Source: Chitinophagaceae bacterium | Lineage (GTDB): Bacteria; Bacteroidota; Bacteroidia; Chitinophagales; Chitinophagaceae | DNA length: 64,000 nt | Direction: 5' to 3' | Assembly: GCA_025363355.1 (NCBI GenBank) | Contig: JANYEB010000037.1 | Coordinates: 111,056-175,055, forward strand | Shown here: positions 3,421-63,112 of the stretch, piece by piece | Position numbering within the stretch: the first letter of the stretch is position 1 | Layout: each line of letters opens with the position of its first letter | Notes under the pieces: model-generated | What the model saw: the letters and a program-made list of their open reading frames with translations, nothing else | The model's database searches: none | What the model was told of the DNA's origin: nothing | Made by a program: the position numbers and the translations under genes

Positions 3421-3427
3421 GGGTTTG

Positions 3428-42431: not shown

Positions 42432-44762
42432 ATGAACAAGTTTATTGCTAAGCTATCAATTAGTTTATTGTTAGTTTTTATAACATTTTCTCAAAGCTTT
42501 TCTCAAAGAAATGCCAATTGGGAAATTGCTCCTTATACATCTAATGTTATAAAAGTTATCTATCATCCTTTTGAGTACAACAAAGATTTTAATGTAACAA
42601 ATGCTGTTGTAGCAAAGCCACAACCCAACTTAGTTCCTGTATATAAAATTAATGAAGATGCTTCTGTAACCATTAATAATGGAGCGTTTAGTCTGTATCC
42701 AGTATTTGCAGATGATGGTAGTAGAGGCTTAGGATATCATTTTAAAAAAGATGAAATGATTTTCGGTGGAGGAGAACGTGCATTGCCAATGAATAGGAAA
42801 GGATACAAGTTTAATTTATATAATCAACCTAATTATGCTTATGGTATTGGTGCAGAAAATTTAAACTATTCTGTTCCATTTTTTATCAGCAATAAAGGGT
42901 ATGGAATTTTTTATGATAATGGTTCTAAAGGAATTGCTGATATTGGAAAAAGCGATAGAAATAATTTTGAAGTTTTGTTTGAATCGGGGGAGATAAATGC
43001 TTTTATCATCTTTGGAAAAACGTATCAAGAAATACTGTCATCGTATCATAAATTAACAGGCACACAACCATTGCCTCCACGTTGGGCTTTAGGAAACTTA
43101 ATGAGCAGATTTGGATATACAAGTCAAGAACAAGCTACAAGCATTGCAAAAAAAATGAAGGATGAAAAAATTCCAATTGATGCTATCATTTTTGATTTGT
43201 TTTGGTTTGGTGATAGCATTAAAGGAACACTTGGAAATTTAGATTGGGTGAATAAAGAAAAATGGCCAAATCCTAATAAAATGATTGCCGATTTTAAAAA
43301 GCAAAATATTAATACTACACTAATTACAGAACCATTCATTTTACAATATACCAATGCATACAACGAATCTTTAGAATACCAAGCAAAAGACATCAATAAC
43401 AATGCTTTTGTGTTGCAAGATTTTTATTTTGGCAAAGGTGGGTTGATAGATATTTTTAGAAAAGATGCAAGCCAATGGATCTGGAATTATCACTACAAAA
43501 AACAAATAAAAAATGGAGTAACAGCCTGGTGGACAGATTTAGGAGAACCTGAACGTCATCCAGAAAATATGTTTCATAACTTAAAAGATTTAGGAGTAGA
43601 TAAAATGGTGCTTGCAAATGAGGTGCATAACATTTATGGACACTATTGGAATAAAATGTTGTTTGATAATTATGCAAAAGAATATCCAGGCCAAAGACTA
43701 TTTCATTTAAACAGAAGTGGATTTGCAGGCAGCCAACGCTATAGCATTTTTCCTTGGAGTGGAGATGTTGGTAGAAACTGGAGTGGCTTGCAAGCACAGC
43801 TACCTGTAATGTTGGGAATGAGTATGTGTGGCGTGCCTTATATACACGCAGATGCAGGTGGTTTTGCTGGTAGTGATGATGAAGGAGAATTATATGTTCG
43901 TTGGTTGCAGTTTGCTGCATATACGCCAATTTTTAGACCTCATGGAACTGCTTTGTATGAAGTAGATACTAAAGCAGCCAGCTTTCCTAGTGAGGCAGCT
44001 TTAATGGAAGAACCTTTTAAATCACTTGCTAAACAAGTTGTTTTAGAACGTTATAAAATGTTGCCATACATCTACACACTTGCATATAGACAAACAAAAT
44101 TTGCAGAACCTTTGGTAAAGCCTTTGTTGTATAATTATGCAACAGATACCAATGCCATTAAAACAGAAAATGAATATTTATTTGGAGATAATATTTTAGT
44201 TGCACCTGTAACTAAAAGAGGAGCAACTGTTCAAAGGGTTTATTTGCCAGAAGGAAATTGGTATGAAGTTGAAACTAATAAAATTTATGCTGGCAAATCG
44301 TTTATAGATGTCGATGTGGCTGAATACAAAAAGCCATTGTTTTATAAAGAAGGAAGTTTTATTCCTCAATACACTTCTACAGGAGAAAACACAACAGAAA
44401 TTAATAGAAAAAAACTTAAAGTGATTTATGTTCCATCTGCAACAAAATCTAATTATGATATGTATGATGATGATGGAGAAACCAAAAATGCTTTAGCACA
44501 AAACCAATATGAATTAATTAAGTTTTCATCAACTGGAAAAACAGCTAAAAGCCTTGCTATTACTATTCAAAATAACAATGGCGTTTATAAAAACAAACCA
44601 AGCGAAAGAAATATTTCATTAACGATTCCTGCATTGGGTGTAAGTCCCAAGACTGTTGTTGTAAATGGTAAGCTAATAAAAGATTTTGTTTGGGAAAATG
44701 ATATACTGACTATTGCAGTAACATCAAAAAACGTTCCTGTTAAAGTTGAATTAAAATGGTAA
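42432..44762 (+). CDS. Glycoside hydrolase family 31 (alpha-glucosidase/alpha-xylosidase-like), secreted
   Basis: Signal peptide, then IPIDAIIFDLFWFG, WWTDLGEPE, FPWSGDV and HADAGGF motifs. Confidence 0.8.
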   Translation: MNKFIAKLSISLLLVFITFSQSFSQRNANWEIAPYTSNVIKVIYHPFEYNKDFNVTNAVVAKPQPNLVPVYKINEDASVTINNGAFSLYPVFADDGSRGLGYHFKKDEMIFGGGERALPMNRKGYKFNLYNQPNYAYGIGAENLNYSVPFFISNKGYGIFYDNGSKGIADIGKSDRNNFEVLFESGEINAFIIFGKTYQEILSSYHKLTGTQPLPPRWALGNLMSRFGYTSQEQATSIAKKMKDEKIPIDAIIFDLFWFGDSIKGTLGNLDWVNKEKWPNPNKMIADFKKQNINTTLITEPFILQYTNAYNESLEYQAKDINNNAFVLQDFYFGKGGLIDIFRKDASQWIWNYHYKKQIKNGVTAWWTDLGEPERHPENMFHNLKDLGVDKMVLANEVHNIYGHYWNKMLFDNYAKEYPGQRLFHLNRSGFAGSQRYSIFPWSGDVGRNWSGLQAQLPVMLGMSMCGVPYIHADAGGFAGSDDEGELYVRWLQFAAYTPIFRPHGTALYEVDTKAASFPSEAALMEEPFKSLAKQVVLERYKMLPYIYTLAYRQTKFAEPLVKPLLYNYATDTNAIKTENEYLFGDNILVAPVTKRGATVQRVYLPEGNWYEVETNKIYAGKSFIDVDVAEYKKPLFYKEGSFIPQYTSTGENTTEINRKKLKVIYVPSATKSNYDMYDDDGETKNALAQNQYELIKFSSTGKTAKSLAITIQNNNGVYKNKPSERNISLTIPALGVSPKTVVVNGKLIKDFVWENDILTIAVTSKNVPVKVELKW

Positions 44763-45271
44763 CGATAGACTTTAAGTTAAGACCTTGGTCAATTAATGAT
44801 TTAGGTAGTTTGGTTAAGTATGCTAATAACATAAATATTTCTAAAAATCTAACTAATAAGTTCCCTCATCCATACACTGCTGAAAATGGAAAATGGTTTA
44901 TTGAATTTGCAACAAAAAATAACCCTATTCATATTTTTGCAATAGACATTAATGGAGAAGCTGTTGGTGGAATTGGCATTCAACCACAAGATGATATACA
45001 ATCTAAAAATGCCGAACTTGGTTATTGGCTTGCCGAACCATTTTGGAATAAAGGGATCATAACGAAAGTTATTCCACAAATTATTGAATTTGGATTTAAA
45101 GCTTATACTATTGACAGGATTTTTGCTAGACCATTTGGTTCAAACATAGCTTCTCAAAAAGTACTTGAAAAAACTGGATTTATTCTTGAAGCAAGACTTG
45201 AAAAAACATTGTTTAAAAATGGAGAGTATGAAGATGAATTGATTTATGCTATTAGAAGAAAATCTGGTTGA
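44756..45271 (+). CDS. GNAT-family N-acetyltransferase (RimJ/RimL-like)
   Basis: LRPW...D...L, GYWLAEPFWNKGI and NIASQKVLEKTGF. It overlaps the GH31 stop by 7 nt. Confidence 0.8.
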   Translation: MVTIDFKLRPWSINDLGSLVKYANNINISKNLTNKFPHPYTAENGKWFIEFATKNNPIHIFAIDINGEAVGGIGIQPQDDIQSKNAELGYWLAEPFWNKGIITKVIPQIIEFGFKAYTIDRIFARPFGSNIASQKVLEKTGFILEARLEKTLFKNGEYEDELIYAIRRKSG

Positions 45272-45436: not shown

Positions 45437-45467
45437 ATATCAAATATTTTATCTAAATATTTGATAT
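45437..45467. promoter_or_regulatory. Perfect 13-bp inverted repeat (operator-like) upstream of the giant gene
   Basis: ATATCAAATATTT-tatct-AAATATTTGATAT lies about 195 nt upstream of the ATG at 45661. Confidence 0.35.
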
Positions 45468-45660
45468 TCAATAAATATGTTTTGCCTAATTATCGTCAGG
45501 TATATTTTTTTTAACAATTATTCGTTTATTTGTTAATCAAAACCTTTCTTCCGACTAATACTGCTTCGAAAACAATGTTCTATAAACCATTACTTCTAAT
45601 CCAAGGGTGTGTGTTTTGAACTTACTGCTTAATAAAATATTGGCCAATTCAATTTGAATT

Positions 45661-48600
45661 ATGAAAAAAACACTCTTCGGTTTTCTAACGATTATCTGCT
45701 TATTATTTTCTTCGGTATCAAATGCACAAATCAACTCTTCTAGCCAATGGACTTGGATGAAAGGAGATAATACTATTAACTCATTTGGAGTTTATGGTAC
45801 AAAAGCCGTGTCAGCTGCTACTAATAAACCAAGTGGAAGATATGCAGGCACTACCTGGACGGACACATTAGGAAATTTGTGGCTTTTTGGTGGTGTTGGA
45901 TTTGATGTTAATGGTAATTATGGTCAATTAAATGATTTGTGGAAATATGATGTTGGCACCAATCAATGGACTTGGTTACTTGGTGATGATGTAAATAATC
46001 AGTCTGGTATATATGGTACAAAAGGTATCGCAGCATCTACTAACAAACCAGGTGCAAGAAATGCAAGTTTTGGTTGGGTGGATCCATCGGGTAATCTCTG
46101 GTTGTTAGGCGGCAATGGATATGATGAAGGTGGAAGTTTGGGTAATATGAATGATTTGTGGCAATACAATATAAGTAGTGGTGAATGGATCTGGGTTAGT
46201 GGAGATAATGCTGTAAATCAAAACGGGGTTTATGGAACTAAAGGTGTTGCAGATATAAACAATATCCCTGGTGCAAGATATGGAAGTGCAAGCTTTACAG
46301 ATGCAAGTGGTAATTTATGCTTTTTTGGAGGTTTTGGCAATGATGGTTCAGGAAATAGTGGTCAGTTAAATGATTTATGGAAATATAATACAGCTACTGG
46401 AGAATGGACTTGGTTAAGTGGAGATAATACTATTAATCATTATGGTGTTTATGGTACTAAAGGTGTTGCATCATCTACAAATCAACCAGGGTCAAGAGAA
46501 GCTGTTAATGGTTGGAAAGATCCATCGGGTAATTTCTGGATTTTTACTGGATATGGATATGCTGAAAGCGGAAGTACACAAGTAATGAACGATTTATGGA
46601 AATATAATACCATTACAAATCAATGGAGTTGGGAAAGTGGCGATAATACTACATTACAATATGGTGTTTATGGCACAAAAGGAATTGCAAATGTTGCCAA
46701 TAAACCTGGTGCAAGATATACTAGTGCCACCTGGGCAGATGCAAGTGGTAATTTATGGCTTTTTGGAGGATATGGATATGTTACATCTGGTGGTGCTGGT
46801 GATTTGAACGATTTATGGAAATACAATACAAATACTGGAGAATGGACTTGGGTTAGTGGAGATAATACTATAAATCAAACGGGTATTTATGGCACTCAAG
46901 GTGTAGCAGATGTCAATAATAAACCTGGAGGAAGGGATAATAGTATGGGTTGGAAAGACACAAATGGTAATTTATGGCTTTTTGGTGGCACTGCTTATGA
47001 TGCAAATGGAAGTGTTGGGCAAATAAATGATTTATGGAAATTGGGAATTGCTTGCAATATTAGTAGTAGTTCAAATACACAAACTGCTTGTAATAGTTTA
47101 GTATGGAATGGTACAACTTATACTTCAAGTGGAACTTATACTTGGACAGGCACAAATGCTGCTGGTTGCGATAGTACAGCAACATTAAATTTGACTATAA
47201 ATAATTCCTCAATATCATCTACCACAACTAGTGCTTGTGATAGTTTGATATGGAATGGTACAACTTATACCACAAGTGGTACTTATACTTGGGGTGGCAC
47301 AAATGCTGCTGGTTGTGATAGCACTGCTGCATTGAATTTAATAATAAACAATTCAACAACTTCATCAACAAGTGTAACGTCTTGTGATAGTTTAAGATGG
47401 AATGGGACAAAATATACAGCAAGTGGTACATATACATATAGTACTACAAATGCTGTTGGTTGCGATAGCACAGCTACTTTAAATCTAACAATAAATAATT
47501 CCACCATTTCAGTATCAACGGTTACAGTATGTGACAGTCTGATTTGGAATGGAACAATTTATAGAAATAGCGGTACTTATACTGCTCATTTTACAAATGC
47601 TGTAGGTTGTGATAGTACAGCTACACTTGGTTTAATAGTAAACTACAAACCAACGGTTGCACCAATTGTTGGATTAACCAATATTGAAATATTAGCTATT
47701 GGTGGTGGTGGGGGTGCTGGTGGACCAGATGGTGCAATTGGAGCAGGTGGTGGAGCAGGTGGAGCAGTTTATGGAGCTTATACTTTAAGTACAACTGGCA
47801 GCAGTATTTATACTGTTGGTGTTGGGGGTGCTGGAGGATATGGTCAAGGTTGTGCAGGAAATGCTGCTGGTGGAACTGCTGGTGTAAATGGTGGTGCAGC
47901 AGGTGGAAATGCTGGAACAGGTGGTTGTTCGGGTGGTGGTGGTGGAAGTGGTGGTTGGTCTGGTTTATACCAAGGCTCAAACTACATAGTTGTTGCAGGT
48001 GGTGGAGCAGGTGGTGGTGGTTCTAATGAAGGAAATGCAAACGACGTTACAACACCTGGTGGTGGTAATCAATCTGCTGCTTTTGGAACTTCAATGACTG
48101 GTCAAAATGGAACGGCCTATAGTGGAGATGGTGGAGGAGGTGGTGCCGGTGGTGGTGGATTTTATGGTGGTGCTGGACAATCTAATTTAACACAAACTGG
48201 TTTTGTTGCAAGTCAAGCTTGGGGTGGTGCTAACTACGCTAATCCAACAGGCAGAAATAGCTTTGCAACATATATTGGAAACAGTGGTGCAACATCTAGT
48301 ACTGGAACTGGTGGTCAGGGGACCACATCTACAATCTCTAATTCAAGTAATTTTAATTATAGTAATACTTTTGGAAAAGGTGGTAATGCACAAGGCAATG
48401 GTGGAACAAGCACAACAGCCAATGGAAATAATGGTGTTGTAATTATTAGATATCCTGGTTCAGCAGTTGCTACTGGGGGTGCTGTTACACAAAGTGGTGG
48501 ATATACATTACATACATTTACTGCTACAGGTAGCAATACGTTTACTGCAAACTCTGGCAATTCTGTTTGTGCTGGTTCTACAACAACTTTAAATTGTGTA

Positions 48601-51600
48601 ACAACTGGTGGTGTTTGGTCAAGCAGTGATACTACAATTGCATCAATTAATGCTTCAACTGGTCTTGTAACTGGTAAAGTTGCAGGAACTGTAACGATTA
48701 CTTATACTGTAACAAATGCACAAGGTTGTATAGGAAGTTCTACAAAACAATTTACTGTTAATGCTTTGCCAATTGTTCCTGCAATTACAGGTAATACTAC
48801 AATTTGCGATAATACCACAACAGCTTTAAGCAACTCTTTAACTGGTGGAATTTGGAGTTCATCTTTAACATCAAAAGCAACAATTAATGCTTCAACTGGT
48901 TTAGTAACTGGTGTAGCTTCTGGCTCAACTAATATCACTTATTTATACACTGATAATAATGGTTGTTCAAATACTAATTCAACTGTTATAACAATCAATG
49001 CAAGCCCTACAGTTGCTGCAATTAGCGGTAATGCTGGTGTTTGTATTGGTAGTACAACAACATTTAGCGATGTTACTTTAAATGGTACTTGGACTTCAAG
49101 TAATACAAATGCTGCAACAATTAATAACAGTGGTTTAATTACAACTGTTGCTACTGGTTCTTCAACTATTAGTTATACAGTAATTAATGCAAGTACTTGT
49201 ACAACTTTTGTTACAAAATCAATTACAGTAAATGCTCTACCAAATGTTACAGCTAATGCAACTGCAACTACAGTTTGTTTTGGTACTCAAACAACTTTAA
49301 CAGGTGGCAATGCTTCTTCTTATACTTGGAATAATGGTGTGACAAATGGAACTGCTTTTGCACCTTCTGCAACAAACTCTTATACTGTAACAGGAACTGA
49401 TGGCAATGGTTGTGTTAAAACTGCAAACATTACTATCACTGTAAACTCATTGCCTATTGTTAGCATCAGTCCATCTGTTACTACTTTATGTAATGGATAT
49501 TCATCAACATTAACAGCATCTGGTGCTAGTACTTATGGTTGGACAATAGTTGGCTCTTCGCCATATATGGACCAAGTATCAAGTACTTCAACATTAAAAT
49601 TTGCTGCTGGTTTACATAAATTAAAAAGTTCATATAGTGGTTCTGCAATACGCATTAGACGTTCAAGCGATAATACTGAGGCTGATTTTGGATTTAGTGG
49701 TAATGATTTAGATGTTGCTGCAATTAGCACATTTATTGGTGGAGGAACAGCTTATGTAAAAACATTATACGACCAATCTGGCAATGGCAATCATTTATCA
49801 CAAACATCAAATGGTAATCAACCAACCTTAACTTTAAGTGGATTGAATGGCAAACCTGTAATTCACACAAATACTTCACAAAGTATATATAATATGACAA
49901 ACTTTACACCACCGTTTAGTGTAGTTTACGCAGCACGTCAAACTGGTGGTAGCCGTGGAAGATTGTTGTCTGGTACAAATAATAATTGGTTATTAGGATG
50001 GTGGGGTGGAAACAGAGCAATGGCTCATTTTGATGGTTGGATTACAAGCTCTTGCTGTAGTGCATCAGATAATAATATTTATGTTTATTCTGGAACAGGA
50101 ACAGGCTCTAGCTCTTTTGCTTATCAAAATAAAACATCAATCACTACAAACTCTACTGGTGGAACTACAGGACCAAATGGTATTTCTCTTAACAGAAATG
50201 AGGCTTCTGATGCAGACTTTACAGATGTTGTAGAATTCAATTCTGTATTATCAACTGCTGATAGAAATATTGTAGAAAATGGAATGGGTGCTTATTATGG
50301 CTTATCTGGTTTTTATAATACAACAGGAGCAAGCACTACAGTATCACCAAATACAACATCTAGCTTTACTGTTTATGGAACAGATGGAAATGGATGTATT
50401 GGTACTGCAACACAAGCTATAACTGTTAATCCGAAACCAAATGCTGGTGCAGATGTTAACTATTTATGTGGTAGTGCAACACAAACATTAACAGGTACTG
50501 CAAATACAGGAAACTGGACTGCATTAGGTACAAACCCAATAGGTGCTACATTAAGTGCTACAACATCGGGTGTTGCAACAGTATCATTTACAAATCTTGC
50601 TTCTGGTACTTTCAGTTTCATTTACACTTTACCAACAACTAATTGTAGCGATACAATGAGTATTACAGTTAGAGCTAAACCAAATGCAGGAGCTGACCAA
50701 GCTGTATGTATTTTAAATGTAGCGACTGGTGTTACTTTAACATCAAATGTTGCTGCAGTTTGGACTGCAAAATCTGGTAATGTAGGAACTTCAAATATTG
50801 TGTCTGCAATTAGTGCAAGTACACAAGTAAATAACTTTAGTGTTGTAGGAGATTATAATTATATAAATACAAATAATGGTTGCACAGATACTGTTAAAGT
50901 AACTGTTACACCAGCTGGTTCGATAGGTAATTATGTTTGGAAAGATCAAAATAATGATGGCTTACAAAACGAACCTACATCAAATGGTGTTAATGGAATA
51001 ACAGTTGATTTGTATAAAAAAGATGGAATGGGAGCATTTAATTTATATGCTACCACCACAACCGCTAATAGTGGAAGTGGTAACCCAGGATTTTACAACT
51101 TTGGTATTTGTGAAGATGGGGTTTATAAAATAAAAGTACCAACTGTAAATCCATTTACACAAACACATTTAACAACACAAGATGCAACTGCTGCTACCAA
51201 TGGCAATAGCGATGTAAATCCTGCTGATGGATTTAGCCCAGATGTTACGATTGATACACACGGAACTGGTGTTGCAAAAGATAACACCACAATAGATGCT
51301 GGTTACCAAATTTGTACTAAACCAATTGCTGGCATTGATTTCACATCTTGTGGTGGTCAGTTGGTAGCAATAACAGGCGTTTCTACAACACCTGCATTAC
51401 CTACAACAGATGGTAATTGGGCTGCTCTTTCAAGTAATCCAAGTGGTACTATCTTAAGTGCAACTAACTTAGGTGTTTCAACTATTCAATTTGATTCATT
51501 AGCATCTGGAGTTTATAGCTATATCTATTCTGTAACTGGTGGATGTGATGATACTCTAAATATTACAGTTGGCTATAAACCAGCAGCTGGAACTGATTTA

Positions 51601-54600
51601 TATGAAATTTGTGGTGGTTCTGTTATTCCTGTAACTGGCTTGCCAAGTGGTGGCACTTGGTCTCAAGCATATGCAAATATTTCTGGTGCAACTGTTGATG
51701 CAACTAATAATGGCGTTGCTAATATTAGTTTTGCAAATATTATTTCAGGAATATACACATTTGTTTATACAACTCCATTTGGGTGTACAGATACTATGAC
51801 TATCTCTACCAAACCAAAACCTAATGCAGGTAATGATGTATATATGGAGTGCGGTACACCAAAATTATTTGATTCAGTAAGAGCAACACCAACTGGTGGG
51901 ACTTGGGCTGCAATGTCTAGTAATCCTACAGGTGTAACACTTGGTTCTACTACTAATGGTAAAGCACAAATTAGTTTGCCAATAGCACCAGTTCAAGGAA
52001 CTTGGTCATTTATTTACACAGCACCAAATGGTTGTACAGATACAATGAGCTACACAATTGGAGTAACAGGCACCCCTGCACCAGCAATCAATTCTGGTAG
52101 CAACCCAATTTGTGGTAATAGTACTGTTCAAATTTGCCCTACTTTTTTTGGATGGAGCAATTATCAATGGTATAAAAATGGGGTTGCAGTATCTGGAATA
52201 AATGGTACACAATCTTGTATTACAATTGACTCTTCAAAAATTGGCAGTTATACTTTAGCAGGAACTAACGGTTCAGCTTGTTGGTCAAAACAATCAAGCC
52301 CAGTTGTAATTAGTTTAGCAGGAGCAGTAACTCCAACCATCACAATTCAAGGTGGTTTAACAACAGCTTGTAATAATGGAAGTGTTACTTTAATTAGTAG
52401 TTCAACACAAAACAATCAATGGAATAAAAATGGTGTTGCAATTAGTGGGGCAACATCTCAATATTATACAGCTTCAACAAGTGGTGTTTATACTGTAACT
52501 GCTATTAATTGTGGATACACAAGAACAAGTTCTGGAACTACAATAACTATTGTTGCTCCAATAAGTATTTCATCTATACAAGCAAGTTCAGGTTCTGTTT
52601 GCACAGGAAGCACATTAATATTAAGCAGTGCAACAACTGGTGGCGTATGGACATCTAGCAATCCTTCAAAAGCAACTGTCAATGCTGCTACTGGAATTGT
52701 TACTGGTTTGAATGCTGGTTCAACAATCATCACTTACACAGTAACAGTTAGTGGTTGCAGCAATGCAACAAGTTACGCGTTAAGTGTAGTAGATGGTTCT
52801 AACATTACAACACCGACTATCTCTGTACAAGGGTCAACAATATTATGTGGAACAGCAACTGTGCAACTATGTACAGGGACTTTTGGCTGGAGTAATTATC
52901 AATGGTATAAAAATGGAGTAGCTGTAACAACTGGTACAGGAACTTGTATTACTGTAGACACTTCTAAATTAGGAAGCTACACACTAGCAGCTACTACAGG
53001 TAGTGGTTGCTGGTCTCCTTTATCAAATGCTGTAACTATTAGCAGTTCTACAGTATTGCCATCAACTCCAACTATTAGTGCAACTGGCTCAACAACTGTA
53101 TGTAATAATGGAACTGTTGTTCTAAGCAGTAATGCTACAACAAATAATCAATGGAAAAAAGATGATGTAACAATTAGTGGAGCAACATCTCAATCTTATA
53201 CTGCTTCAACTAGTGGTGTTTATACAGTATCTGTTAGCAATTGTGCAGGAAGTTCAGTTAGTGTTGGAATCACAGTAACAATTGTTCCTACAATTACACT
53301 AGGTTCAATTCAATCAGCTACTAGCTCTGTTTGTAAAAATGCAACAGTAACTTTAACCAACTCAACCACTGGTGGCTTATGGGCTTCAAACAATAATTCA
53401 AAGGCAACTGTTAATGCAACAACAGGAGCTGTTACTGGTGTTGATACAGGTAGTGTAATTATTAGTTACACAGTAATAGTTAGTGGATGTAGCAAATCAG
53501 TTTCTACTACCTTAACGGTTGTAGATGGCTCTAATATGATTGCACCAGTTATTGCAGCACAAGGACAAACAAGTTTATGCGGAACAAGTACAGTTCAGAT
53601 TTGCCCAACAACATTTGGTTTTAGTAATTATCAATGGTATAAAGATGGCATAGCTGTAACAAGTAATGGAGCTAGTGCTTGTATTACTATAGATACATCT
53701 AAATTGGGTAGCTATACTTTAGCTGCAACAAATGGTAGTGGTTGTTGGTCAACAGTATCTGATGCAGTTGTTGTTAGTGCTTCATCTATACCAGTAGTTC
53801 CAACAATTTCAACATCTGGTTCTGGTACTATATGTAATGGAGGAACAATTACTTTAACTAGCAGCTCATCAACTGGAAATCAATGGAAGAAAGATGGAGT
53901 TGCTATCAGTGGTGCTACCTCTCAATTTTACACAGCATCTGCAAGTGGTGTCTATACTGTAACTGTTACAAATTGTGGTAGTGCAATCAGTACAGGGACA
54001 TCAATTACTGTTGTTTCATATATAACTATTAATTCAATACAATCAATTACTGGAACTGTTTGTAAAAACGCCACATCAACTTTAATTAATACAACAACTG
54101 GTGGAGTTTGGTCATCAAGTAACAATTCAATTGCTACTGTTAATTCATCAACAGGTGTTTTAACAGGTGTTGATACAGGTACAGTAACTATAACTTATAC
54201 AGTAACTATAAGTGGTTGTAGTAATTCAGTTCAAGCAACATTCACAATAGTAGATGGTTCAAATATTGTAGCACCAACTATTATTGCACAAAGTTCTTCA
54301 GTAATATGCTCAAATGGTAATGTAACTATTTGCCCAACAGTATTTGGCTGGAGTAATTATCAATGGTATAAAAATGGAATTGCATTAACAAACAATGGAG
54401 CTGGAGCTTGTATTACTGTTGATACATCTAAATTGGGTAGCTATACTTTAGCTGCAACAACAGGAACCTGCTGGTCATCTCAGTCGAATGCAATAACTGT
54501 TTCAACTTTACTAGCACCTGCAACACCAACAATTAGTGCTGGCGGCTCTACAACATTATGCAATGGCGGTAATGTAGTGTTAACAAGTAATGCACCAAGT

Positions 54601-56028
54601 GGCAATCAATGGAATAAAGATGGAGTAGTTATTAGTGGTGCAACATCTGCGACTTATATTATTACTACCGCTGGAGTTTATACAGCAACAGTAACTAATT
54701 GTGGTGGTAGTTCTACAAGTGCAGGTACAACAGTATCAATAGCAGCACCCATAACAGTTGCAGCAATTGGGTCAAGTAGTAGCAATGTATGTATGGGTAG
54801 CACTGTAACATTAACTAATGCAACTGTCGGAGGTGTTTGGTCTTCAAGCAATACATCAGTTGCAACTATTAATTCATCTGGAATTGTTACAACAGTTGGT
54901 GTAGGAACAGCAGTGATTAGTTACACAGTAACAGCAGGCAGTTGTTCAAATGCAACGACTTATACTCTTACAGTTCAGTCAGGTTCTGTAGCTACACCAA
55001 CCTTAGATATAAGAGGTTCAGTAAATATCTGTGGTAGTGGAAGCTTGCAAATGTGTCCATTAGTTTGGGGTTATAGCAATTATCAATGGTATAAAGATGG
55101 TGTTGCATATTCAACAGCCTCTTGTATTACAGTAAACACAGCAGGTTCATATACATTAACAGGAACCAATGGTTCAGGTTGCTGGTCTGCACAGTCTGCA
55201 CCAGCTCTCGTAACCATAAATCCTATTCCTACAATAGTAGCTACAGCAGGCCCAACAGCAGTATGTGCAGGATTTTCAATAGCATTAGTTAATAGCAGCA
55301 CAATACCAAGTGGTGGAACAGGAGTTTGGTCAACAGGATATAATAGTCAAGTATCTGTAGGTGCAACAACTGGCGTAGTATCTGCATCAAATGCAGGTAA
55401 TGTAGTAATTAAATACACAGTTATATCTGCAGTAGGTTGCACAAACTATATAAACTATAACGTAACAATAAATGCAATACCAAGTGTACCAAGTATTACT
55501 TATGCACCAGGAACTATTAATCCACAAGCAGGAGCACCAACAGGAAGTTTTTGTGCAAACAGAACCTTTACAGTAGTGGGCACACCAAGCGGGGGCGTAT
55601 GGAGCAAAACGGGTGTTATTAATGTTACAACCCCAGGTGGTGTAGTTACTACAGGCAATATAGTTGGAGCTGGAACATTAAAATATACTTATACCGATGC
55701 AAATGGCTGTAGTAATAGCAGAACAATGGTTGGCAATGTATACGTTTGTGCTGCAAGAGGAATAAATACAGTTGACGGTCAACTGTCGACTGTCAACAGT
55801 TTTACAATGTATCCTAACCCCGCTAAATCTCAAGTAAGTATTAACGTTGAGACCTTAGTTGGAACTAGTAATATTATTGTTACAGACCTTTATGGAAAAG
55901 TGGTTAAATCTCAAACATTAAGTATGGGAACTAACACCATTAATATTAGTAAACTATCAGCTGGAATGTACTTTGTTAGCATTATTACTAGCGAGGGTAA
56001 ACAAACTAAAAAATTAATAATAGAATAA
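45661..56028 (+). CDS. Giant (3455 aa) multidomain T9SS-secreted surface protein
   Basis: Domain layout by coordinate:
- Signal peptide.
- 6-7 Kelch-like blades, 45745-47045 (W.W..GD...N..GVYGTKG...N.PGAR...GNLWLFGG...LNDLWKY).
- 4 x 49-aa Cys repeats, 47089-47676.
- Gly-rich domain, 47690-48460.
- Big_2-like Ig domains (GGVWSSS...A.IN..TGLVTG), 48550-49500.
- ConA/LamG-like region, 49540-50310.
- SdrD-B-like domain (NYVWKDQNNDGLQNE), 50915-51310.
- Five ~243-aa tandem modules, 52060-55215.
- T9SS C-terminal domain (MYPNPAKSQVSINV...GMYFVSIITSEGKQTKKLIIE), 55801-56025. Confidence 0.85.
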   Translation: MKKTLFGFLTIICLLFSSVSNAQINSSSQWTWMKGDNTINSFGVYGTKAVSAATNKPSGRYAGTTWTDTLGNLWLFGGVGFDVNGNYGQLNDLWKYDVGTNQWTWLLGDDVNNQSGIYGTKGIAASTNKPGARNASFGWVDPSGNLWLLGGNGYDEGGSLGNMNDLWQYNISSGEWIWVSGDNAVNQNGVYGTKGVADINNIPGARYGSASFTDASGNLCFFGGFGNDGSGNSGQLNDLWKYNTATGEWTWLSGDNTINHYGVYGTKGVASSTNQPGSREAVNGWKDPSGNFWIFTGYGYAESGSTQVMNDLWKYNTITNQWSWESGDNTTLQYGVYGTKGIANVANKPGARYTSATWADASGNLWLFGGYGYVTSGGAGDLNDLWKYNTNTGEWTWVSGDNTINQTGIYGTQGVADVNNKPGGRDNSMGWKDTNGNLWLFGGTAYDANGSVGQINDLWKLGIACNISSSSNTQTACNSLVWNGTTYTSSGTYTWTGTNAAGCDSTATLNLTINNSSISSTTTSACDSLIWNGTTYTTSGTYTWGGTNAAGCDSTAALNLIINNSTTSSTSVTSCDSLRWNGTKYTASGTYTYSTTNAVGCDSTATLNLTINNSTISVSTVTVCDSLIWNGTIYRNSGTYTAHFTNAVGCDSTATLGLIVNYKPTVAPIVGLTNIEILAIGGGGGAGGPDGAIGAGGGAGGAVYGAYTLSTTGSSIYTVGVGGAGGYGQGCAGNAAGGTAGVNGGAAGGNAGTGGCSGGGGGSGGWSGLYQGSNYIVVAGGGAGGGGSNEGNANDVTTPGGGNQSAAFGTSMTGQNGTAYSGDGGGGGAGGGGFYGGAGQSNLTQTGFVASQAWGGANYANPTGRNSFATYIGNSGATSSTGTGGQGTTSTISNSSNFNYSNTFGKGGNAQGNGGTSTTANGNNGVVIIRYPGSAVATGGAVTQSGGYTLHTFTATGSNTFTANSGNSVCAGSTTTLNCVTTGGVWSSSDTTIASINASTGLVTGKVAGTVTITYTVTNAQGCIGSSTKQFTVNALPIVPAITGNTTICDNTTTALSNSLTGGIWSSSLTSKATINASTGLVTGVASGSTNITYLYTDNNGCSNTNSTVITINASPTVAAISGNAGVCIGSTTTFSDVTLNGTWTSSNTNAATINNSGLITTVATGSSTISYTVINASTCTTFVTKSITVNALPNVTANATATTVCFGTQTTLTGGNASSYTWNNGVTNGTAFAPSATNSYTVTGTDGNGCVKTANITITVNSLPIVSISPSVTTLCNGYSSTLTASGASTYGWTIVGSSPYMDQVSSTSTLKFAAGLHKLKSSYSGSAIRIRRSSDNTEADFGFSGNDLDVAAISTFIGGGTAYVKTLYDQSGNGNHLSQTSNGNQPTLTLSGLNGKPVIHTNTSQSIYNMTNFTPPFSVVYAARQTGGSRGRLLSGTNNNWLLGWWGGNRAMAHFDGWITSSCCSASDNNIYVYSGTGTGSSSFAYQNKTSITTNSTGGTTGPNGISLNRNEASDADFTDVVEFNSVLSTADRNIVENGMGAYYGLSGFYNTTGASTTVSPNTTSSFTVYGTDGNGCIGTATQAITVNPKPNAGADVNYLCGSATQTLTGTANTGNWTALGTNPIGATLSATTSGVATVSFTNLASGTFSFIYTLPTTNCSDTMSITVRAKPNAGADQAVCILNVATGVTLTSNVAAVWTAKSGNVGTSNIVSAISASTQVNNFSVVGDYNYINTNNGCTDTVKVTVTPAGSIGNYVWKDQNNDGLQNEPTSNGVNGITVDLYKKDGMGAFNLYATTTTANSGSGNPGFYNFGICEDGVYKIKVPTVNPFTQTHLTTQDATAATNGNSDVNPADGFSPDVTIDTHGTGVAKDNTTIDAGYQICTKPIAGIDFTSCGGQLVAITGVSTTPALPTTDGNWAALSSNPSGTILSATNLGVSTIQFDSLASGVYSYIYSVTGGCDDTLNITVGYKPAAGTDLYEICGGSVIPVTGLPSGGTWSQAYANISGATVDATNNGVANISFANIISGIYTFVYTTPFGCTDTMTISTKPKPNAGNDVYMECGTPKLFDSVRATPTGGTWAAMSSNPTGVTLGSTTNGKAQISLPIAPVQGTWSFIYTAPNGCTDTMSYTIGVTGTPAPAINSGSNPICGNSTVQICPTFFGWSNYQWYKNGVAVSGINGTQSCITIDSSKIGSYTLAGTNGSACWSKQSSPVVISLAGAVTPTITIQGGLTTACNNGSVTLISSSTQNNQWNKNGVAISGATSQYYTASTSGVYTVTAINCGYTRTSSGTTITIVAPISISSIQASSGSVCTGSTLILSSATTGGVWTSSNPSKATVNAATGIVTGLNAGSTIITYTVTVSGCSNATSYALSVVDGSNITTPTISVQGSTILCGTATVQLCTGTFGWSNYQWYKNGVAVTTGTGTCITVDTSKLGSYTLAATTGSGCWSPLSNAVTISSSTVLPSTPTISATGSTTVCNNGTVVLSSNATTNNQWKKDDVTISGATSQSYTASTSGVYTVSVSNCAGSSVSVGITVTIVPTITLGSIQSATSSVCKNATVTLTNSTTGGLWASNNNSKATVNATTGAVTGVDTGSVIISYTVIVSGCSKSVSTTLTVVDGSNMIAPVIAAQGQTSLCGTSTVQICPTTFGFSNYQWYKDGIAVTSNGASACITIDTSKLGSYTLAATNGSGCWSTVSDAVVVSASSIPVVPTISTSGSGTICNGGTITLTSSSSTGNQWKKDGVAISGATSQFYTASASGVYTVTVTNCGSAISTGTSITVVSYITINSIQSITGTVCKNATSTLINTTTGGVWSSSNNSIATVNSSTGVLTGVDTGTVTITYTVTISGCSNSVQATFTIVDGSNIVAPTIIAQSSSVICSNGNVTICPTVFGWSNYQWYKNGIALTNNGAGACITVDTSKLGSYTLAATTGTCWSSQSNAITVSTLLAPATPTISAGGSTTLCNGGNVVLTSNAPSGNQWNKDGVVISGATSATYIITTAGVYTATVTNCGGSSTSAGTTVSIAAPITVAAIGSSSSNVCMGSTVTLTNATVGGVWSSSNTSVATINSSGIVTTVGVGTAVISYTVTAGSCSNATTYTLTVQSGSVATPTLDIRGSVNICGSGSLQMCPLVWGYSNYQWYKDGVAYSTASCITVNTAGSYTLTGTNGSGCWSAQSAPALVTINPIPTIVATAGPTAVCAGFSIALVNSSTIPSGGTGVWSTGYNSQVSVGATTGVVSASNAGNVVIKYTVISAVGCTNYINYNVTINAIPSVPSITYAPGTINPQAGAPTGSFCANRTFTVVGTPSGGVWSKTGVINVTTPGGVVTTGNIVGAGTLKYTYTDANGCSNSRTMVGNVYVCAARGINTVDGQLSTVNSFTMYPNPAKSQVSINVETLVGTSNIIVTDLYGKVVKSQTLSMGTNTINISKLSAGMYFVSIITSEGKQTKKLIIE
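47089..47676 (+). repeat. Four exactly phased 147-nt (49-aa) tandem repeats inside the giant CDS
   Basis: The unit-initial TGT codons are at 47089, 47236, 47383 and 47530. The unit is C(N/D)SL.WNGT.YT.SGTYT....NA.GCDSTATLNLTINNS. Confidence 0.85.
52060..55215 (+). repeat. Five tandem ~730-nt (241-245 aa) modules inside the giant CDS (four complete, one partial)
   Basis: The marker AATTATCAATGGTAT (SNYQWYK) recurs at 52159, 52894, 53626, 54355 and 55078. The spacings are 735, 732, 729 and 723 nt, all multiples of 3. Confidence 0.85.
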
Positions 56029-56054: not shown

Positions 56055-56094
56055 AAAGGCTGCATCTATACTATGATGCAGCCTTTCTTGTTTT
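56055..56094 (+). terminator. Rho-independent terminator after the giant gene
   Basis: Stem AAAGGCTGCATC/GATGCAGCCTTT followed by CTTGTTTT. Confidence 0.7.
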
Positions 56095-56321: not shown

Positions 56322-59300
56322 ATGTCTACAACAACATTAACCACTAGGGTAAATTTTGGTAAAACAAAACACCTAGCAGCTGCTCCTGACTTATTAGATA
56401 TCCAATTGGAATCTTTCAGAGAGTTTTTTCAATTAGAAACTACGCCAGATAAGCGTAATAATGAAGGTTTGTTTAAAGTGTTTAAGGAAAATTTCCCTAT
56501 CACTGATACACGTAACATCTTCGTTTTAGAGTTTCTTGACTATTTTATTGATCCGCCACGTTACTCAATTGTTGAGTGTATGGAGCGTGGATTAACTTAT
56601 GCTGTGCCTTTAAAAGCTAAGCTACGTCTTAGTTGTAATGATGAAGAGCACGTGGATTTCCAAACAATTGTACAAGATGTGTTTTTAGGAAATATTCCTT
56701 ATATGACACCTCGTGGTACTTTCGTTGTTAATGGAGCCGAGCGTGTAATTGTTTCTCAATTGCATCGTTCTCCAGGTGTATTCTTTGGTCAATCAACTCA
56801 CCCTAACGGAACAAAAATTTATTCTGCTCGTGTAATTCCTTTTAAAGGAGCATGGATGGAGTTTGCTACAGACATTAACAATGTAATGTATGCTTACATT
56901 GATAGAAAAAAGAAATTCCCTGTAACTACTTTATTACGTTCTATTGGCTTTGAAACTGATAAAGATATTTTGGAGTTGTTTGGAATGGCTGATGAAATTG
57001 CAGTTGATACCAAAACTTTACAACCGCATGTTGGCAGAAAACTAGCTGCTCGTGTTTTAAGAACTTGGGTTGAAGATTTCGTTGATGAAGATACTGGTGA
57101 AGTTGTGAGCATTGAGCGTAACGAAATTGTAATGGAGCGTGATACAATTTTAGATGAAGATGGTATTGATACCATTGTTGAAATGGGTATCGAAAGCATC
57201 TTTATTCAAAAAGAAGAACTAGGTGGAGACTATGCAATCATCTACAATACATTAAACAAAGATACTTCAAACAGTGAGTTAGAAGCGGTTCAGCATATTT
57301 ATCGCCAATTGCGTGGTGCTGATGCTCCAGATAACGAAACTGCACGTGGTATTATCGATAAATTATTCTTTAGTGATAAGCGTTATGATTTAGGAGAAGT
57401 TGGTCGTTACAAAATCAACAGAAAACTAGAACACGCTATCCCTATCGAGAAAAAAGTTTTAACAAAACAAGATATCATTGAAATCATCAAATACTTAGTT
57501 CGTTTAACGAATGCTAAGGCTGAGATTGATGATATTGATCACTTATCAAACCGTCGTGTACGTACAGTTGGCGAACAATTGTATGCACAATTTGGTGTTG
57601 GTTTAGCTCGTATGGCTCGTACTATTCGTGAAAGAATGAACGTTAGAGACAATGAGGTTTTCACTCCAGTTGACTTGATTAATGCTCGTACACTTTCTTC
57701 TGTTATTAACTCATTCTTTGGTACATCTCAGTTATCTCAATTCTTAGATCAAACTAATCCGCTTTCTGAAATTACGCACAAACGTCGTATTTCAGCATTA
57801 GGACCCGGAGGTTTAAGTAGAGAAAGAGCTGGATTTGAGGTTCGTGACGTACACTATTCTCACTATGGTCGTTTGTGTACTATTGAAACTCCAGAGGGAC
57901 CAAACATTGGTTTGATTTCAACGCTTTGCGTTCACGCTGCTATTAATGATATGGGATTCATTGAAACTCCTTATCATAAAGTAACGAATGGTAGAGTAAA
58001 TATGCACGAACAGCAGTATTTAAGTGCTGAAGAAGAAGAAGAAAAGAAAATTGCACAAAGTAATACGCCAATTGATGATAAAGGAAACTTCCTTGAAGAG
58101 AAAATTGTAAGTAGAGATACTGGTGATTTTCCAATTTTAGATAAAGCAGATGTTCAGTTTATGGACGTTGCACCTAACCAAATTGTTGGTTTATCTGCTT
58201 CATTAATTCCTTTCTTGGAGCATGATGATGCTAACCGTGCTTTGATGGGATCGAATATGCAACGTCAGGCTGTGCCATTGATTAGAATGGATGCACCAAT
58301 TGTAGGTACTGGATTGGAAGCAAAAGCAGCATTAGATGCTCGTATTCAAATTCACGCAGATGGAACAGGAGTGGTAGAATTTGTTGATTCAAGAGAAATT
58401 CATATCAGATACGATAGAAATGATGACGATAGATTAATTTCTTTCCACGATGATTTGATTGTTTATAAATTGGCTAAGTTCATTAAAACCAACCAATCAA
58501 CTTGTATTAACTTACGTCCTGCTGTTAAAAAAGGACAACACGTTAAAAAAGGTGATTTCTTAACCGAAGGTTATGCTACTCAAAATGGTGAACTAGCTTT
58601 AGGTAGAAACTTGGTGGTTGCATTTATGCCTTGGAAAGGTTACAACTTTGAGGATGCGATTGTAATTAATGAAAAAGTTGTTAGAGAAGATTTATTTACT
58701 TCTTTACACATTGATGAATATGAATTAGAAGTTAGAGACACTAAACTTGGAGAAGAAGAATTAACTTCTGACATTCCTAACGTTAGTGAAGAAGCAACTA
58801 AAGATCTTGACGAACACGGTATTATTAGAATTGGTGCTACTATTAAAGAAGGTGATATTTTAATTGGAAAAATTACTCCAAAAGGAGAAAGTGATCCAAC
58901 ACCAGAAGAAAAATTATTGCGTGCCATTTTTGGAGACAAAGCTGGTGATGCAAAAGATGCTTCTTTAAAAGCTCCAAACGGAACTGAAGGTACTGTTATT
59001 GATAAAAAATTATTCCAAAGAGCGAAGAAAGATAAAAACTCAAAAGTTCGTGAAAAAGCTGCTTTAGAGAAAGTTGAAAAAGCTCACCATATTGTTGTTG
59101 CTGATTTAAAAGAGCAATTGGTTGGAAAATTGACGATTCTTTTAAGAGAAAAAACTTCTGCTGGCGTTACTAATAGCTATGGAGAAACTTTAATTGGTAA
59201 AGGCGTTAAATTCAACTCTAAAAATCTTCAAACATTAGATGTTCAAGGTATTAATCCTTTGGGCTGGACTGGTGAAGAAAAAGTTGACCAAGCTATCAAT

Positions 59301-60125
59301 ACTTTATTACACAACTACACTATTAAGTATAACGAGGAGTTAGGTAGATTTAAAAGAGAGAAATTCAATATTTCAATTGGTGATGAATTACCAGCTGGTG
59401 TGTTGAAACTTGCTAAAGTTTACTTGGCTGTTAAACGTAAGTTGAAAGTGGGTGATAAAATGGCGGGTCGTCACGGAAATAAAGGTATCGTTGCTAAAAT
59501 TGTACGTGCAGAGGATATGCCATTTATGGAAGATGGAACACCAGTTGATATTGTGTTGAATCCATTGGGTGTACCTAGTCGTATGAACTTAGGACAGATT
59601 TATGAAACCATTTTAGGTTGGACTGGTTTGAAATTAGGTAGAAAATATGCAACGCCAATTTTTGATGGTGCAAGCACTACTGAAATTGAAGACTTGTGTA
59701 AAGAAGCTGGAATTCCTTTAAATGGTCACACACATCTTTATGATGGAGAGACTGGAGAAAGATTCCACCAAAAAGCAACTGTGGGCGTTATTTATGTGAT
59801 TAAACTACACCATATGGTGGATGATAAAATGCACGCTCGTAGCATTGGACCATACAGTTTGATTACACAACAACCGCTTGGTGGTAAGGCTCAATTTGGA
59901 GGTCAAAGATTTGGTGAGATGGAGGTTTGGGCACTGGAGGCTTATGGTGCAGCAAACATCTTACAAGAATTATTGACACTTAAATCTGATGATATTATTG
60001 GTCGTGCAAAAACTTATGAAGCTATTGTAAAAGGCGATAATATCCCTAAAGCTGGTGTGCCAGAATCATTTAATGTGTTGGTTCACGAGCTAAGAGGTTT
60101 AGGTTTAGATTTAACTTTTGAATAA
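56322..60125 (+). CDS. rpoB: DNA-directed RNA polymerase subunit beta
   Basis: Full length, 1267 aa. Motifs: [59 protein letters not shown] and [15 protein letters not shown]. Confidence 0.97.
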
Positions 60126-60146
60126 TCTATTCTAAAGAATATAAAT

Positions 60147-60179
60147 AAAAAGCTGCTTCAATTGAAGCAGCTTTTTTTA
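60147..60179 (+). terminator. Rho-independent terminator immediately after rpoB
   Basis: Stem AGCTGCTTCA/TGAAGCAGCT followed by T7. It begins 22 nt after the stop codon. Confidence 0.75.
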
Positions 60180-60180
60180 T

Positions 60181-60472
60181 GGATAGCAGTACCATTAAAC
60201 AGCATTCGATTTCCATTGAACAGACTGCCATTTCTACAGAACAGGATTTGATTTCTATTGTGCAAAAATCGATTTCCATCTGTTAGAAATTAATTTCCAC
60301 TAAACAGGATTCGATTTCTAATGAATAGACTGTCATTTCTACAGAACAGGATTCGATTTTTATAAAACAGCTATGTCATTGTATAAAATGGGATGCTAGT
60401 TCCATCAGTTGGGATGCTTGTTTTATGAAATGGGATACTTATTCCACCAATTGGGATGGCTGTTCCATCAGT
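60181..60472. repeat. Tandem array of about 14 degenerate 21-bp units
   Basis: Example units: CAGCATTCGATTTCCATTGAA, CAGACTGCCATTTCTACAGAA, CAGGATTTGATTTCTATTGTG, then TGGGATGCTAGTTCCATCAGT, TGGGATGCTTGTTTTATGAAA, TGGGATACTTATTCCACCAAT and TGGGATGGCTGTTCCATCAGT. Unit lengths are 20-22 nt. Units 2-3 recur as units 7-8, 105 bp later. Confidence 0.75.
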
Positions 60473-60492
60473 TTTCTGAACTGTTTTTATTA

Positions 60493-61239
60493 TTAGGGAC
60501 GAGTATATTTAATTGATGATACTTGTTTGTACTCGGCACTTTTTGATTTAAAAACTGATAAGACGTATTTTTTTGATTTTAAAACTACATCTACCAAGCC
60601 TGTTGTTTCAGCATATAATAAAACATCTCTTGCTTGTAAAGCATTTTTGTAAGTTGGTTCTGCATCTGTTACATCTTTATTTGCCTTTTTTAGTTTTGCA
60701 AGATAGGTTTGTAATGCTGCGACTTTTAGTTCGGCTTCGTTGGGTTTATATAGGCTTTGTGCAGCTACCCAATTGATTAAATCCTCGAAATGTTGTACTA
60801 GATTGTCATAGCTCTGTTGACTTGCAGAAATTGTGGTTGGCACTTCTGGGTTATCTGTTATTTCGGTTGTTTTTGATTTTTTAGGTTTTAGTGGTGTGGC
60901 TCTTGTGCCTTGTATTTTTCGGTTATATTCTCTTGCTCCTTCTATGATTGTATCATCTAAATCGAGTGAAGCAAATGAGTTAATTACTTGTGTGGAAAGC
61001 GTGTCTAATGGTTGAAAAATAATTTGTCGTTGTTTGGTTAATTGTCCAAAAATGCCTTCTTGTTTGCTTGCTTCAACTGTTGCATCATCACAAAGTTTGC
61101 AATGTGCTTGCATATTTGTGAGTTTGATTAAATCGTTGGTGGGTGCATACTTGCTGCCATAAGCTGCATTGAATGCAATTTGTGATTTGTAATTGGCTAC
61201 ATTGATAGTATGGCCAGTTTCATTTACTTGTTTTGCCAT
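60493..61239 (-). CDS. Hypothetical protein (248 aa), two helical halves joined by a Lys/Thr/Pro-rich linker
   Basis: Clean ORF with an ATG start. No motif that I can assign to a family. Confidence 0.5.
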   Translation of the reverse strand: MAKQVNETGHTINVANYKSQIAFNAAYGSKYAPTNDLIKLTNMQAHCKLCDDATVEASKQEGIFGQLTKQRQIIFQPLDTLSTQVINSFASLDLDDTIIEGAREYNRKIQGTRATPLKPKKSKTTEITDNPEVPTTISASQQSYDNLVQHFEDLINWVAAQSLYKPNEAELKVAALQTYLAKLKKANKDVTDAEPTYKNALQARDVLLYAETTGLVDVVLKSKKYVLSVFKSKSAEYKQVSSIKYTRP

Positions 61240-61632: not shown

Positions 61633-61633
61633 T

Positions 61634-63103: not shown

Positions 63104-63112
63104 GTGACTGCA

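Follow-up and report, generated by a model that had tools for sequence, protein, structure and literature searches.

The 64,000-nucleotide (nt) stretch of the Chitinophagaceae contig JANYEB010000037.1 (assembly GCA_025363355.1, positions 111,056 to 175,055) is called here the window. Between the genes of a glycoside hydrolase of family 31 (GH31) and a GNAT acetyltransferase on one side and rpoB on the other, it carries a giant gene. Its product of 3455 amino acids (aa) is probably a modular surface fibril, an adhesin or a lectin, which is exported through a secretion system of type IX (T9SS) and encoded in a replacement giant-gene island. The gene is one uninterrupted 10.4-kb open reading frame (ORF), as an earlier sequence-only reading of this DNA had described it. 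That reading had also called the domain combination unusual. This claim is weakened, because every module is widespread, a related architecture exists in Flaviaesturariibacter amylovorans, and collinear orthologues occur in metagenome-assembled genomes (MAGs) of Chitinophagaceae. The protein itself is a singleton at 90% identity in a collection of 15 billion proteins, and it belongs to a kind already known, that of giant, modular T9SS cargo encoded in replacement islands for giant genes. The features of the locus are collected in Table 1.

Table 1. Features of the giant gene and its surroundings, with positions in the window and in the protein. CTD, C-terminal sorting domain; Ig, immunoglobulin; AF2, AlphaFold2 model; TRF, Tandem Repeats Finder; L018, the contig of one orthologue.
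Feature	Protein (aa)	Window (nt)	Strand	Basis or remark
GNAT acetyltransferase, left edge of the variable slot		44756..45271	+	Pfam
Inverted repeat		45437..45467	.	Perfect 13-nt arms, 5-nt loop, A/T only; 194 nt 5′ of the ATG
Conserved upstream block, probably promoter and 5′ leader		45446..45645	+	85% identity over 203 nt to the region 5′ of the L018 orthologue
Giant gene, complete ORF	3455 aa and stop codon	45661..56028	+	ATG start, without internal stop
Sec signal peptide, MKKTLFGFLTIICLLFSSVSNA followed by Q	1-22	45661..45726	+	Read off the sequence, not by predictor
Six-bladed Kelch beta-propeller head, 73-aa period	23-464	45727..47052	+	Pfam Kelch families
Four 49-aa repeats with two Cys each	466-661	47056..47643	+	TRF period 147 nt, phased
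Glycine-rich domain of the ALK/LTK / Gly_rich_2 type with a small C-terminal beta unit	665-965	47653..48555	+	Homologues, AF2
Three Big_2 and one intact Ig_7-like domain	966-1262	48556..49446	+	Big_2 E 1.3e-15 (three stretches), Ig_7 E 0.078
Split Ig-like domain, N-terminal half	1263-1296	49447..49548	+	Splice alignment with aa 1553-1590
Nested ConA/LamG-like jelly-roll with GH54-like N-terminal motif	1297-1552 (256 aa)	49549..50316	+	PF09206, AF2, Foldseek
Split Ig-like domain, C-terminal half	1553-1590	50317..50430	+	Splice alignment
Two ~80-aa two-Cys repeats joined by a (K)PNAG(A/N)D motif	1591-1751	50431..50913	+	Read off the sequence
SdrD B-like domain	1754-1882	50920..51306	+	PF17210, E 5e-20
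Three further ~80-aa two-Cys repeats	1886-2137	51316..52071	+	Read off the sequence
Four complete ~243-aa modules	2140-3112	52078..54996	+	Anchors every 241-245 aa
Partial fifth module, first Ig-like domain only (78 aa)	3113-3190	54997..55230	+	Repeat anchors
Two Big_2-like, membrane-proximal Ig-like domains	3191-3365	55231..55755	+	Ig_NUP210_16th E 2e-5
Type-A T9SS CTD	3383-3455	55807..56025	+	PF18962, TIGR04183
Intrinsic-terminator-like hairpin, then T-run		56055-56086, to 56096 with the T-run	+	12-bp stem (6 GC pairs); 27 nt past the stop codon
rpoB		56322-60125		Stands alone
DUF5106-like ORF in the rpoB-sodA slot		60493-61239	-	
489-aa type-A T9SS cargo in the rpoB-sodA slot		61634-63103		

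Both ends of the protein carry export signals. The N-terminus has the layout of a Sec signal peptide, with MKK, a 16-residue hydrophobic core and SNA before the Gln. Over the first 25 aa the identity with the orthologue on contig L018 (GCA_965185295.1) is 68%, and the signal peptide is also conserved in homologous Kelch-head proteins that are matched from residue 1. At the other end, the T9SS sorting signal that had been noticed from the sequence belongs to type A, and two families match it above their curated cut-offs: Por_Secre_tail (PF18962; E 7e-15, 55.4 bits against 27) and TIGR04183 (E 2.7e-13, 49.7 bits against 23). Cargo with a type-A CTD is shuttled by PorV, PorU cleaves the CTD, and linkage to anionic lipopolysaccharide (A-LPS) or release follows; Chitinophagaceae are listed among the families that bear T9SS (PMC11611037). 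Judging from these signals, the giant protein would be exported via Sec and T9SS.

Behind the signal peptide stands the Kelch head. Eight Kelch-type or Kelch-repeat beta-propeller families of Pfam match it (E 6e-27 to 1e-6), and the motif NDLW occurs at aa 91, 164, 237, 310, 383 and 456, which gives exactly six blades where six or seven had been proposed. The blades are 42-60% identical to each other at the aa level. A sequence search of PDB with the head gave no match, and its many relatives (33-54% identity) are parts of smaller proteins (~500-1650 aa), several of them with a CTD-like tail at the end. The four phased Cys repeats which follow, also recognised in the sequence-only reading, have the consensus C.S..WNG..Y..SG.Y......GCDS...L.L.I. 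We detected 1711 homologues, mostly surface proteins of Bacteroidota, many of which carry Por_Secre_tail, CHU_C or FlgD_ig. The repeats have no counterpart in PDB or in the copies of Pfam and NCBIfam that were searched.

The next domain is glycine-rich (the Gly-rich segment itself spans aa ~672-963). Its homologues at 50-54% identity belong to PF21722 (Gly_rich_2) and a distant one to PF12810 (ALK_LTK_GRD). Two intermediates, P0144 and P0155, which match the query with E 1e-42 and 1e-29, score 26.0 and 33.6 bits on PF21722, and a third, P0169, scores 29 bits on PF12810. The probable membership in this family comes through such intermediates and not through a direct match. The AF2 model of aa 655-965 has a pLDDT of 82.6, and when it was compared with PDB by Foldseek, glycine-rich domains of ALK/LTK made up the top 9 and 19 of the 21 top matches (probability 0.72-1.00). 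A mycobacteriophage tail-tip protein and a cyanophage fibre (7ypx, 9d93) are also among the fold matches, which makes the earlier association of this domain with phage fibres reasonable. A PDB search with the domain profile returned only LamG domains carried by some of the aligned homologues, and no ALK. In the literature we found nothing relevant on bacterial members of PF09206, PF12810 and PF21722, nor on the catalytic residues of GH54. As a separate observation, a glycine-rich domain (Gly_rich_2 or ALK_LTK_GRD) repeatedly stands alongside a jelly-roll of the concanavalin A (ConA)/LamG kind, as in P0159, P0166, P0167, P0169 and the two F. amylovorans giants (L010, L011), and some bacterial proteins of ~500 aa consist of a glycine-rich domain plus LamG_3.

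Most of the remaining length is built of Ig-like domains. The Big_2 type, named already in the sequence-only reading, is matched with E down to 1.7e-26, and the SdrD-B-like fold suspected there is borne out by PF17210 (72.1 bits, cut-off 29.7, with positions 2-112 of the 112 in the profile matched). The ~80-aa two-Cys repeats on both sides of the latter have no Pfam or PDB match. Five tandem modules of ~243 aa had been counted; four of them are complete, and the fifth is present only as a partial copy. Each complete module consists of three Ig-like domains (NYQWYK type, NQWxK type and Big_2), and the modules are 57-66% identical to each other at the aa level.

The jelly-roll of the ConA/LamG kind was also foreseen, and it proved to be nested inside an Ig-like domain. 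When the two flanking halves are spliced, they give a second Ig_7-like domain which aligns end to end with the preceding domain (score 169 versus 41 ± 8 for shuffles). The AF2 model of the jelly-roll has a pLDDT of 86.5 and a pTM of 0.87. It has 96 PDB fold matches at E ≤ 1e-3, of which the 50 listed are ConA-like folds. After catalytic domains of GH54, considered below, the next matches are lectin jelly-rolls, namely the Hc domain of clostridial neurotoxin and the lectin domain of trans-sialidase. The family is very large: 65,998 clusters (50% identity) at E ≤ 1e-3 and 11,704 at E ≤ 1e-30. Proteins of 800-6000 aa often contain several copies of the domain, which is also found as stand-alone proteins of ~260-310 aa; fusion partners include a phage head-completion domain, a prepilin N-terminus, LamG_3 and the GDSL-type lipase family (PF13472). 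The virion structural protein family PHROG 10356 matches the jelly-roll with E 2e-17, and many phage proteins match it by fold, with a template modelling (TM) score of up to 0.80.

The protein was then compared with its relatives. Contigs 100% identical to the window occur in the metagenome samples SRR20627846/49, SRR23617199 and SRR23617308. In a genome scan, two MAGs of Chitinophagaceae proved to have orthologues (at 87% and 73% identity), and F. amylovorans, which is in culture, to have the jelly-roll in two of its giant ORFs. These two giants (3551 and 5445 aa) carry ALK_LTK_GRD with E 3e-18 and 1e-42, and the pairing of glycine-rich domain and jelly-roll is recurrent in Chitinophagaceae. 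The orthologue on contig L005 has 3860 aa and is 80-94% identical per 150-aa tile. It is longer by ~160 aa of Ig-like repeats in the three-repeat region (aa 1886-2137) and by one 243-aa module, so that five are complete. On L008 the Cys-repeat region appears longer, and the L009 orthologue lacks the Kelch head.

The L018 locus shows the most clear-cut difference. Here GNAT is followed by an orthologue of 4257 aa that has the signal peptide, the Cys repeats, the glycine-rich domain, Big_2, the jelly-roll and SdrD_B in common with the giant of the window. The Kelch head is absent, and in its place lies a different head of ~650 aa without Pfam or PDB match. A guess that this head is a beta-helix was dropped, as the Pfam scan gave nothing. 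The DNA similarity of the two loci (87%) ends at 45730, where the signal peptide ends, and resumes at ~47082-47152, in the first Cys repeat. This is a precise swap of a head cassette.

How far does the variation of the locus go? The search for relatives started from the GH31 and RpoB proteins on either side, and these flanks are conserved, with aa identities of 97.8% for RpoN, 92.7-94.2% for GH31 and 99.4-99.6% for RpoB. The slot between them is occupied by the orthologues of 3455, 3860 and 4257 aa or by other genes. L016+L006 and L017+L007 have unrelated giants: one with SIBA-E_N, NHL and He_PIG, one beta-helix T9SS protein of 3063-3116 aa, and one T9SS protein of 2078 aa. In L012, L013 and L015 the slot gene has an RCC1-like start. 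With its conserved flanks, at least three types of occupant and one head swap, the slot has the make-up of a replacement island. Because the flanks are nearly identical and yet the slot holds differing modules, a swapped head or unrelated giants, this variation suggests that a structure exposed on the surface is under diversifying selection.

More tentatively, the slot may be a strain-level "surface barcode", in which relatives with ~99% RpoB identity exchange whole T9SS fibrils or their distal heads only, excised exactly at the borders with the signal peptide and the Cys repeats, with recognition modules that are shared with phages; such modules would be the ALK-type glycine-rich domain and the GH54-N-like LamG family, known from fibres and virion proteins. 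We think this possible rather than probable. As an observation apart, the last ~300 aa of the protein (aa 3151-3455, 55111-56025) are 52% identical to those of the otherwise unrelated 3063-aa beta-helix giant of L006 in the same slot. This shared 3′ end, two Big_2-like domains and the CTD, could be a recombination anchor. Nesting of the jelly-roll, the swappable Kelch head and the replacement slot between GH31/GNAT and rpoB are points beyond the sequence-only reading.

How would such a protein be used by the cell? The Sec signal peptide would bring it to the periplasm, and the type-A CTD would then guide it across the T9SS translocon. As in those type-A cargo proteins that have been characterised, the CTD would be cleaved and the new C-terminus attached to the outer-membrane surface or released. 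The C-terminus would be cell-proximal, and ~26 Ig-like domains (Big_2, Ig_7-like, SdrD_B and the two-Cys repeats) would form an extended stalk, whose length, if each domain adds some 4 nm, we estimate to be on the order of 100 nm. The stalk would present the candidate ligand-binding modules away from the cell, with the Kelch propeller forming its tip; the other two are the glycine-rich domain and the nested jelly-roll. The likeliest targets of these putative binding modules are glycans or other surfaces, for example particles, algae and other cells.

Several points weigh against a surface fibril exported in this way. For the 49-aa Cys repeats and for the ~80-aa two-Cys repeats alike we infer the Ig-like fold. 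The direct match of the glycine-rich domain to PF21722 is insignificant (E 0.97, 9.8 bits, cut-off 24.3), and its fold match to ALK is weak (best E 3e-3, TM ~0.3). The core genes of the host T9SS (SprA/Sov, PorV, PorU, GldK-N) do not lie within the window, and whether type-A cargo is anchored or released varies among species (PMC11611037). The slot comparison is based on a handful of metagenome contigs, several of which end inside giant genes. No rival explanation fits the evidence as well as the T9SS surface fibril does.

The variation of the slot may be explained in another way, by a surface coat or decoy whose turnover among strains evades phages or grazers that recognise the surface, with adhesion not the main role. 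The slot is replaced among genomes with ~99% identical RpoB, the head is swapped, and the modules are common to fibre and virion proteins of phages; in the literature on replacement islands, phage predation is the driver usually proposed for exposed surface structures. However, orthologues retain 70-90% identity in their Ig stalks, which limits the turnover to parts of the protein. A coat is also compatible with an adhesin rather than exclusive of it. As the principal role of the protein we regard evasion as unlikely.

A second possibility is a gliding-motility adhesin like SprB or RemA, which the gliding machinery would move over the surface of the cell. A T9SS cargo of giant size, rich in repeats and equipped with lectin-like modules, follows the general design of gliding adhesins of Bacteroidota. 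The CTD, however, belongs to type A and not to type B: among Pfam and NCBIfam families, neither TIGR04131 nor CHU_C nor SprB repeats match the giant protein. There is no PorP/SprF-like gene adjoining, and the rhodopsin genes of close relatives hint at a planktonic life. We give this explanation little credence.

The third rival is a secreted carbohydrate-degrading enzyme, an active hydrolase of the GH54 arabinofuranosidase type which cooperates with the GH31 glycosidase encoded 0.9 kb upstream. PF09206, the GH54 catalytic domain, matches the jelly-roll above its gathering threshold (E 1e-9, 38.5 bits against 25), PDB entries 1wd3 and 2d43 match it by sequence (E 1e-6), and GH54 catalytic domains are its best fold matches (E ~1e-11, TM 0.62-0.69). 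The L005 orthologue also has the vicinal Cys-Cys pair of aa 1465-1466, which we take to resemble the vicinal disulfide found in GH54. Against this, the PF09206 match covers only profile positions 21-90 of 315, the PDB sequence match is limited to the same N-terminal stretch, and even a profile of 40 family sequences matches only residues 15-88 of the GH54 chains in PDB. The nucleophile and the acid/base of GH54, presumably Glu221 and Asp297 of AkAbfB, belong to the other half; an E221Q entry (6sxr) is among the fold matches.

Across the jelly-roll family only the first ~105 residues (with RVRRSSDNTE.DIGF and YDQSGNG...Q..QP, and RRSSDN...YDQSG almost invariant in alignment A1) and one acidic residue near the C-terminus are conserved, while the middle is variable. 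No acidic pair is conserved in the C-terminal two-thirds, and the single conserved acid, in a weak alignment, falls on the GH54 "FYEG" strand and not on the GGDNS Asp. The Cys-Cys pair is missing in the nearest non-orthologous homologues, no CBM42/AbfB domain was found by Pfam anywhere in the giant protein, and the jelly-roll is common in phage virion proteins. GH31, for its part, is kept whatever occupies the slot, and GNAT and a 390-nt spacer separate it from the giant gene. Because the PF09206 match is N-terminal only, conservation is confined to the N-terminal part, and the family occurs in phage virion proteins, the jelly-roll is better read as a putative binding module than as a GH54 enzyme. 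The enzymatic explanation appears to us very improbable.

Finally, the long ORF would be an assembly artefact (repeat collapse or expansion) or a pseudogene, a suspicion raised by two metagenome contigs, 100% identical to the window, that stop at 46339 within the Kelch repeats and by the relatives' contigs that end inside giant genes, and one that we can practically dismiss, because the 243-aa modules are only 65-70% identical at the DNA level, repeats across the ORF have diverged (59-75%) with just one 40-mer recurring, the frame stays open over 10.4 kb of DNA with 30-39% GC, and collinear orthologues exist in three independent assemblies.

The giant gene also differs from its surroundings in composition, with a GC content of 0.36-0.39 versus 0.30-0.33 in the flanks and a strong G skew. 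Both are explained by a protein in which Thr, Gly, Ser and Asn are abundant. A horizontal origin, which the higher GC had raised, was set aside, as the composition rich in Gly, Thr, Ser and Ala explains the GC sufficiently. The strong terminator described earlier corresponds to a terminator-like hairpin downstream (Table 1), and similar hairpins stand 3′ of other genes of the window, for example rpoB (60147-60176). The upstream palindrome described with it is real, since an inverted repeat of 13 nt was reached in 1 of 1000 shuffles of the intergenic region, and it may be a protein-binding site. Its conservation did not hold: the block conserved at L018 excludes the left arm and has two mismatches in the right one, and we rejected it as a conserved operator. 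Upstream of the giant gene no Bacteroidota TAnnTTTG motif was found, and matches to sigma-70-like promoters were not above those in shuffles. The longest perfect hairpin of the window is a different one, intergenic and far from the giant gene (5959-5997, an 18-bp stem with a 3-nt loop, TTTTAGGATATCGCTACA CAA TGTAGCGATATCCTAAAA).

Among the neighbours, GNAT overlaps the GH31 gene, and rpoB follows on the other side; no partner gene is visibly coupled to the giant, in agreement with the sequence-only reading. GNAT is intact in the window and in L018. In L012, L016, L017 and L019, which have other giants, it is a pseudogene with stops and frameshifts (~12325-12700). GNAT may be part of the island. 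Either the island has its left edge within GNAT, or GNAT and the giant protein are linked in function.

The rpoB gene is solitary, without rplJ or rplL upstream in the window and in L005, L006 and L007 (10001-13804). Bacteroidota usually keep rplL, rpoB and rpoC together; here the 3.9 kb downstream of rpoB in the window, and 10 kb in these three relatives, contain no rpoC. A second variable slot lies between rpoB and sodA (window 60126-63165; L005 13805-15615; L006 and L007 13805-17157). It holds two 104-aa ORFs in L005 and genes for rhodopsin and lycopene cyclase/BCD in L006 and L007. The giant gene had been taken for the only large accessory locus in a housekeeping window. The rest of the window is indeed housekeeping, except that the second slot harbours a smaller T9SS cargo gene.

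It remains to compare the protein with known systems. As for other cargo with a type-A CTD, such as the gingipains of P. gingivalis, CHU_0922 of C. hutchinsonii and RemA of F. johnsoniae, a surface or secreted location is expected; the likeness to RemA extends to lectin-like modules on a repetitive body. The window protein is far larger than these, and its heads are Kelch, ALK-type glycine-rich and GH54-N-like jelly-roll domains. SprB of Flavobacterium johnsoniae is likewise a giant, repeat-rich, T9SS-dependent surface filament, which is what we predict here. However, SprB combines a CTD of type B with SprB repeats and has sprF as its neighbour; all three are absent here. Type I-secreted Ig-repeat adhesins (MpIBP, SiiE, LapA) also place distal ligand-binding modules on many Ig-like extenders; in contrast to them, the window protein has a C-terminal T9SS signal, an N-terminal binding head and no RTX repeats.

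The nearest architectures are those of the uncharacterised giants L010 (3551 aa) and L011 (5445 aa) of F. amylovorans JCM 17919, another member of Chitinophagaceae, which share Ig_7, ALK_LTK_GRD, a partial PF09206 match and Por_Secre_tail. Their jelly-roll is 40-44% identical to that of the window; the Kelch head, SdrD_B and the 243-aa modules are replaced by HYR, PA14 and PKD_5. The glycine-rich domains of ALK and LTK (PDB 7lrz, 7nx1) gave the best fold matches for a domain which in the window belongs to a bacterial T9SS cargo. The catalytic domain of GH54 arabinofuranosidase B (1wd3, 2d43, 6sxs) shares the jelly-roll fold and a ~70-residue N-terminal motif (..RRSSD.., YDQSGNGNHL.Q). Here, in contrast, the catalytic half is unmatched, CBM42 is absent, and the domain has ~256 aa instead of 315 and is inserted in an Ig-like domain.

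For the locus as a whole the closest parallel is the giant-gene region (GGR) of Polynucleobacter asymbioticus, a replacement island where one slot with conserved flanks likewise holds different giants in close strains (PMC5644125). The window differs in phylum and secretion route, its slot runs from GH31/GNAT to the solitary rpoB, and a precise head swap is visible in it.

Two large module families of this protein, the 49-aa Cys repeat and the GH54-N-like jelly-roll, have no model of their own in the searched copies of Pfam and NCBIfam. The jelly-roll (~66,000 clusters) has only a partial "ArabFuran-catal" match there, and current annotation would mislabel it as an arabinofuranosidase. Also of some value is that, in several bacterial proteins not related to each other, an ALK-type glycine-rich domain is accompanied by a jelly-roll of the ConA/LamG kind. 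The locus offers a clean natural case in which the head on a conserved stalk is replaced like a cassette, in a defined replacement island beside an essential gene, and is useful for studying how surface diversity originates in uncultured aquatic Bacteroidota. If the tentative barcode interpretation is true, the locus would record an ongoing exchange of recognition modules between hosts and phages, driven by the pressure of phages or grazers.

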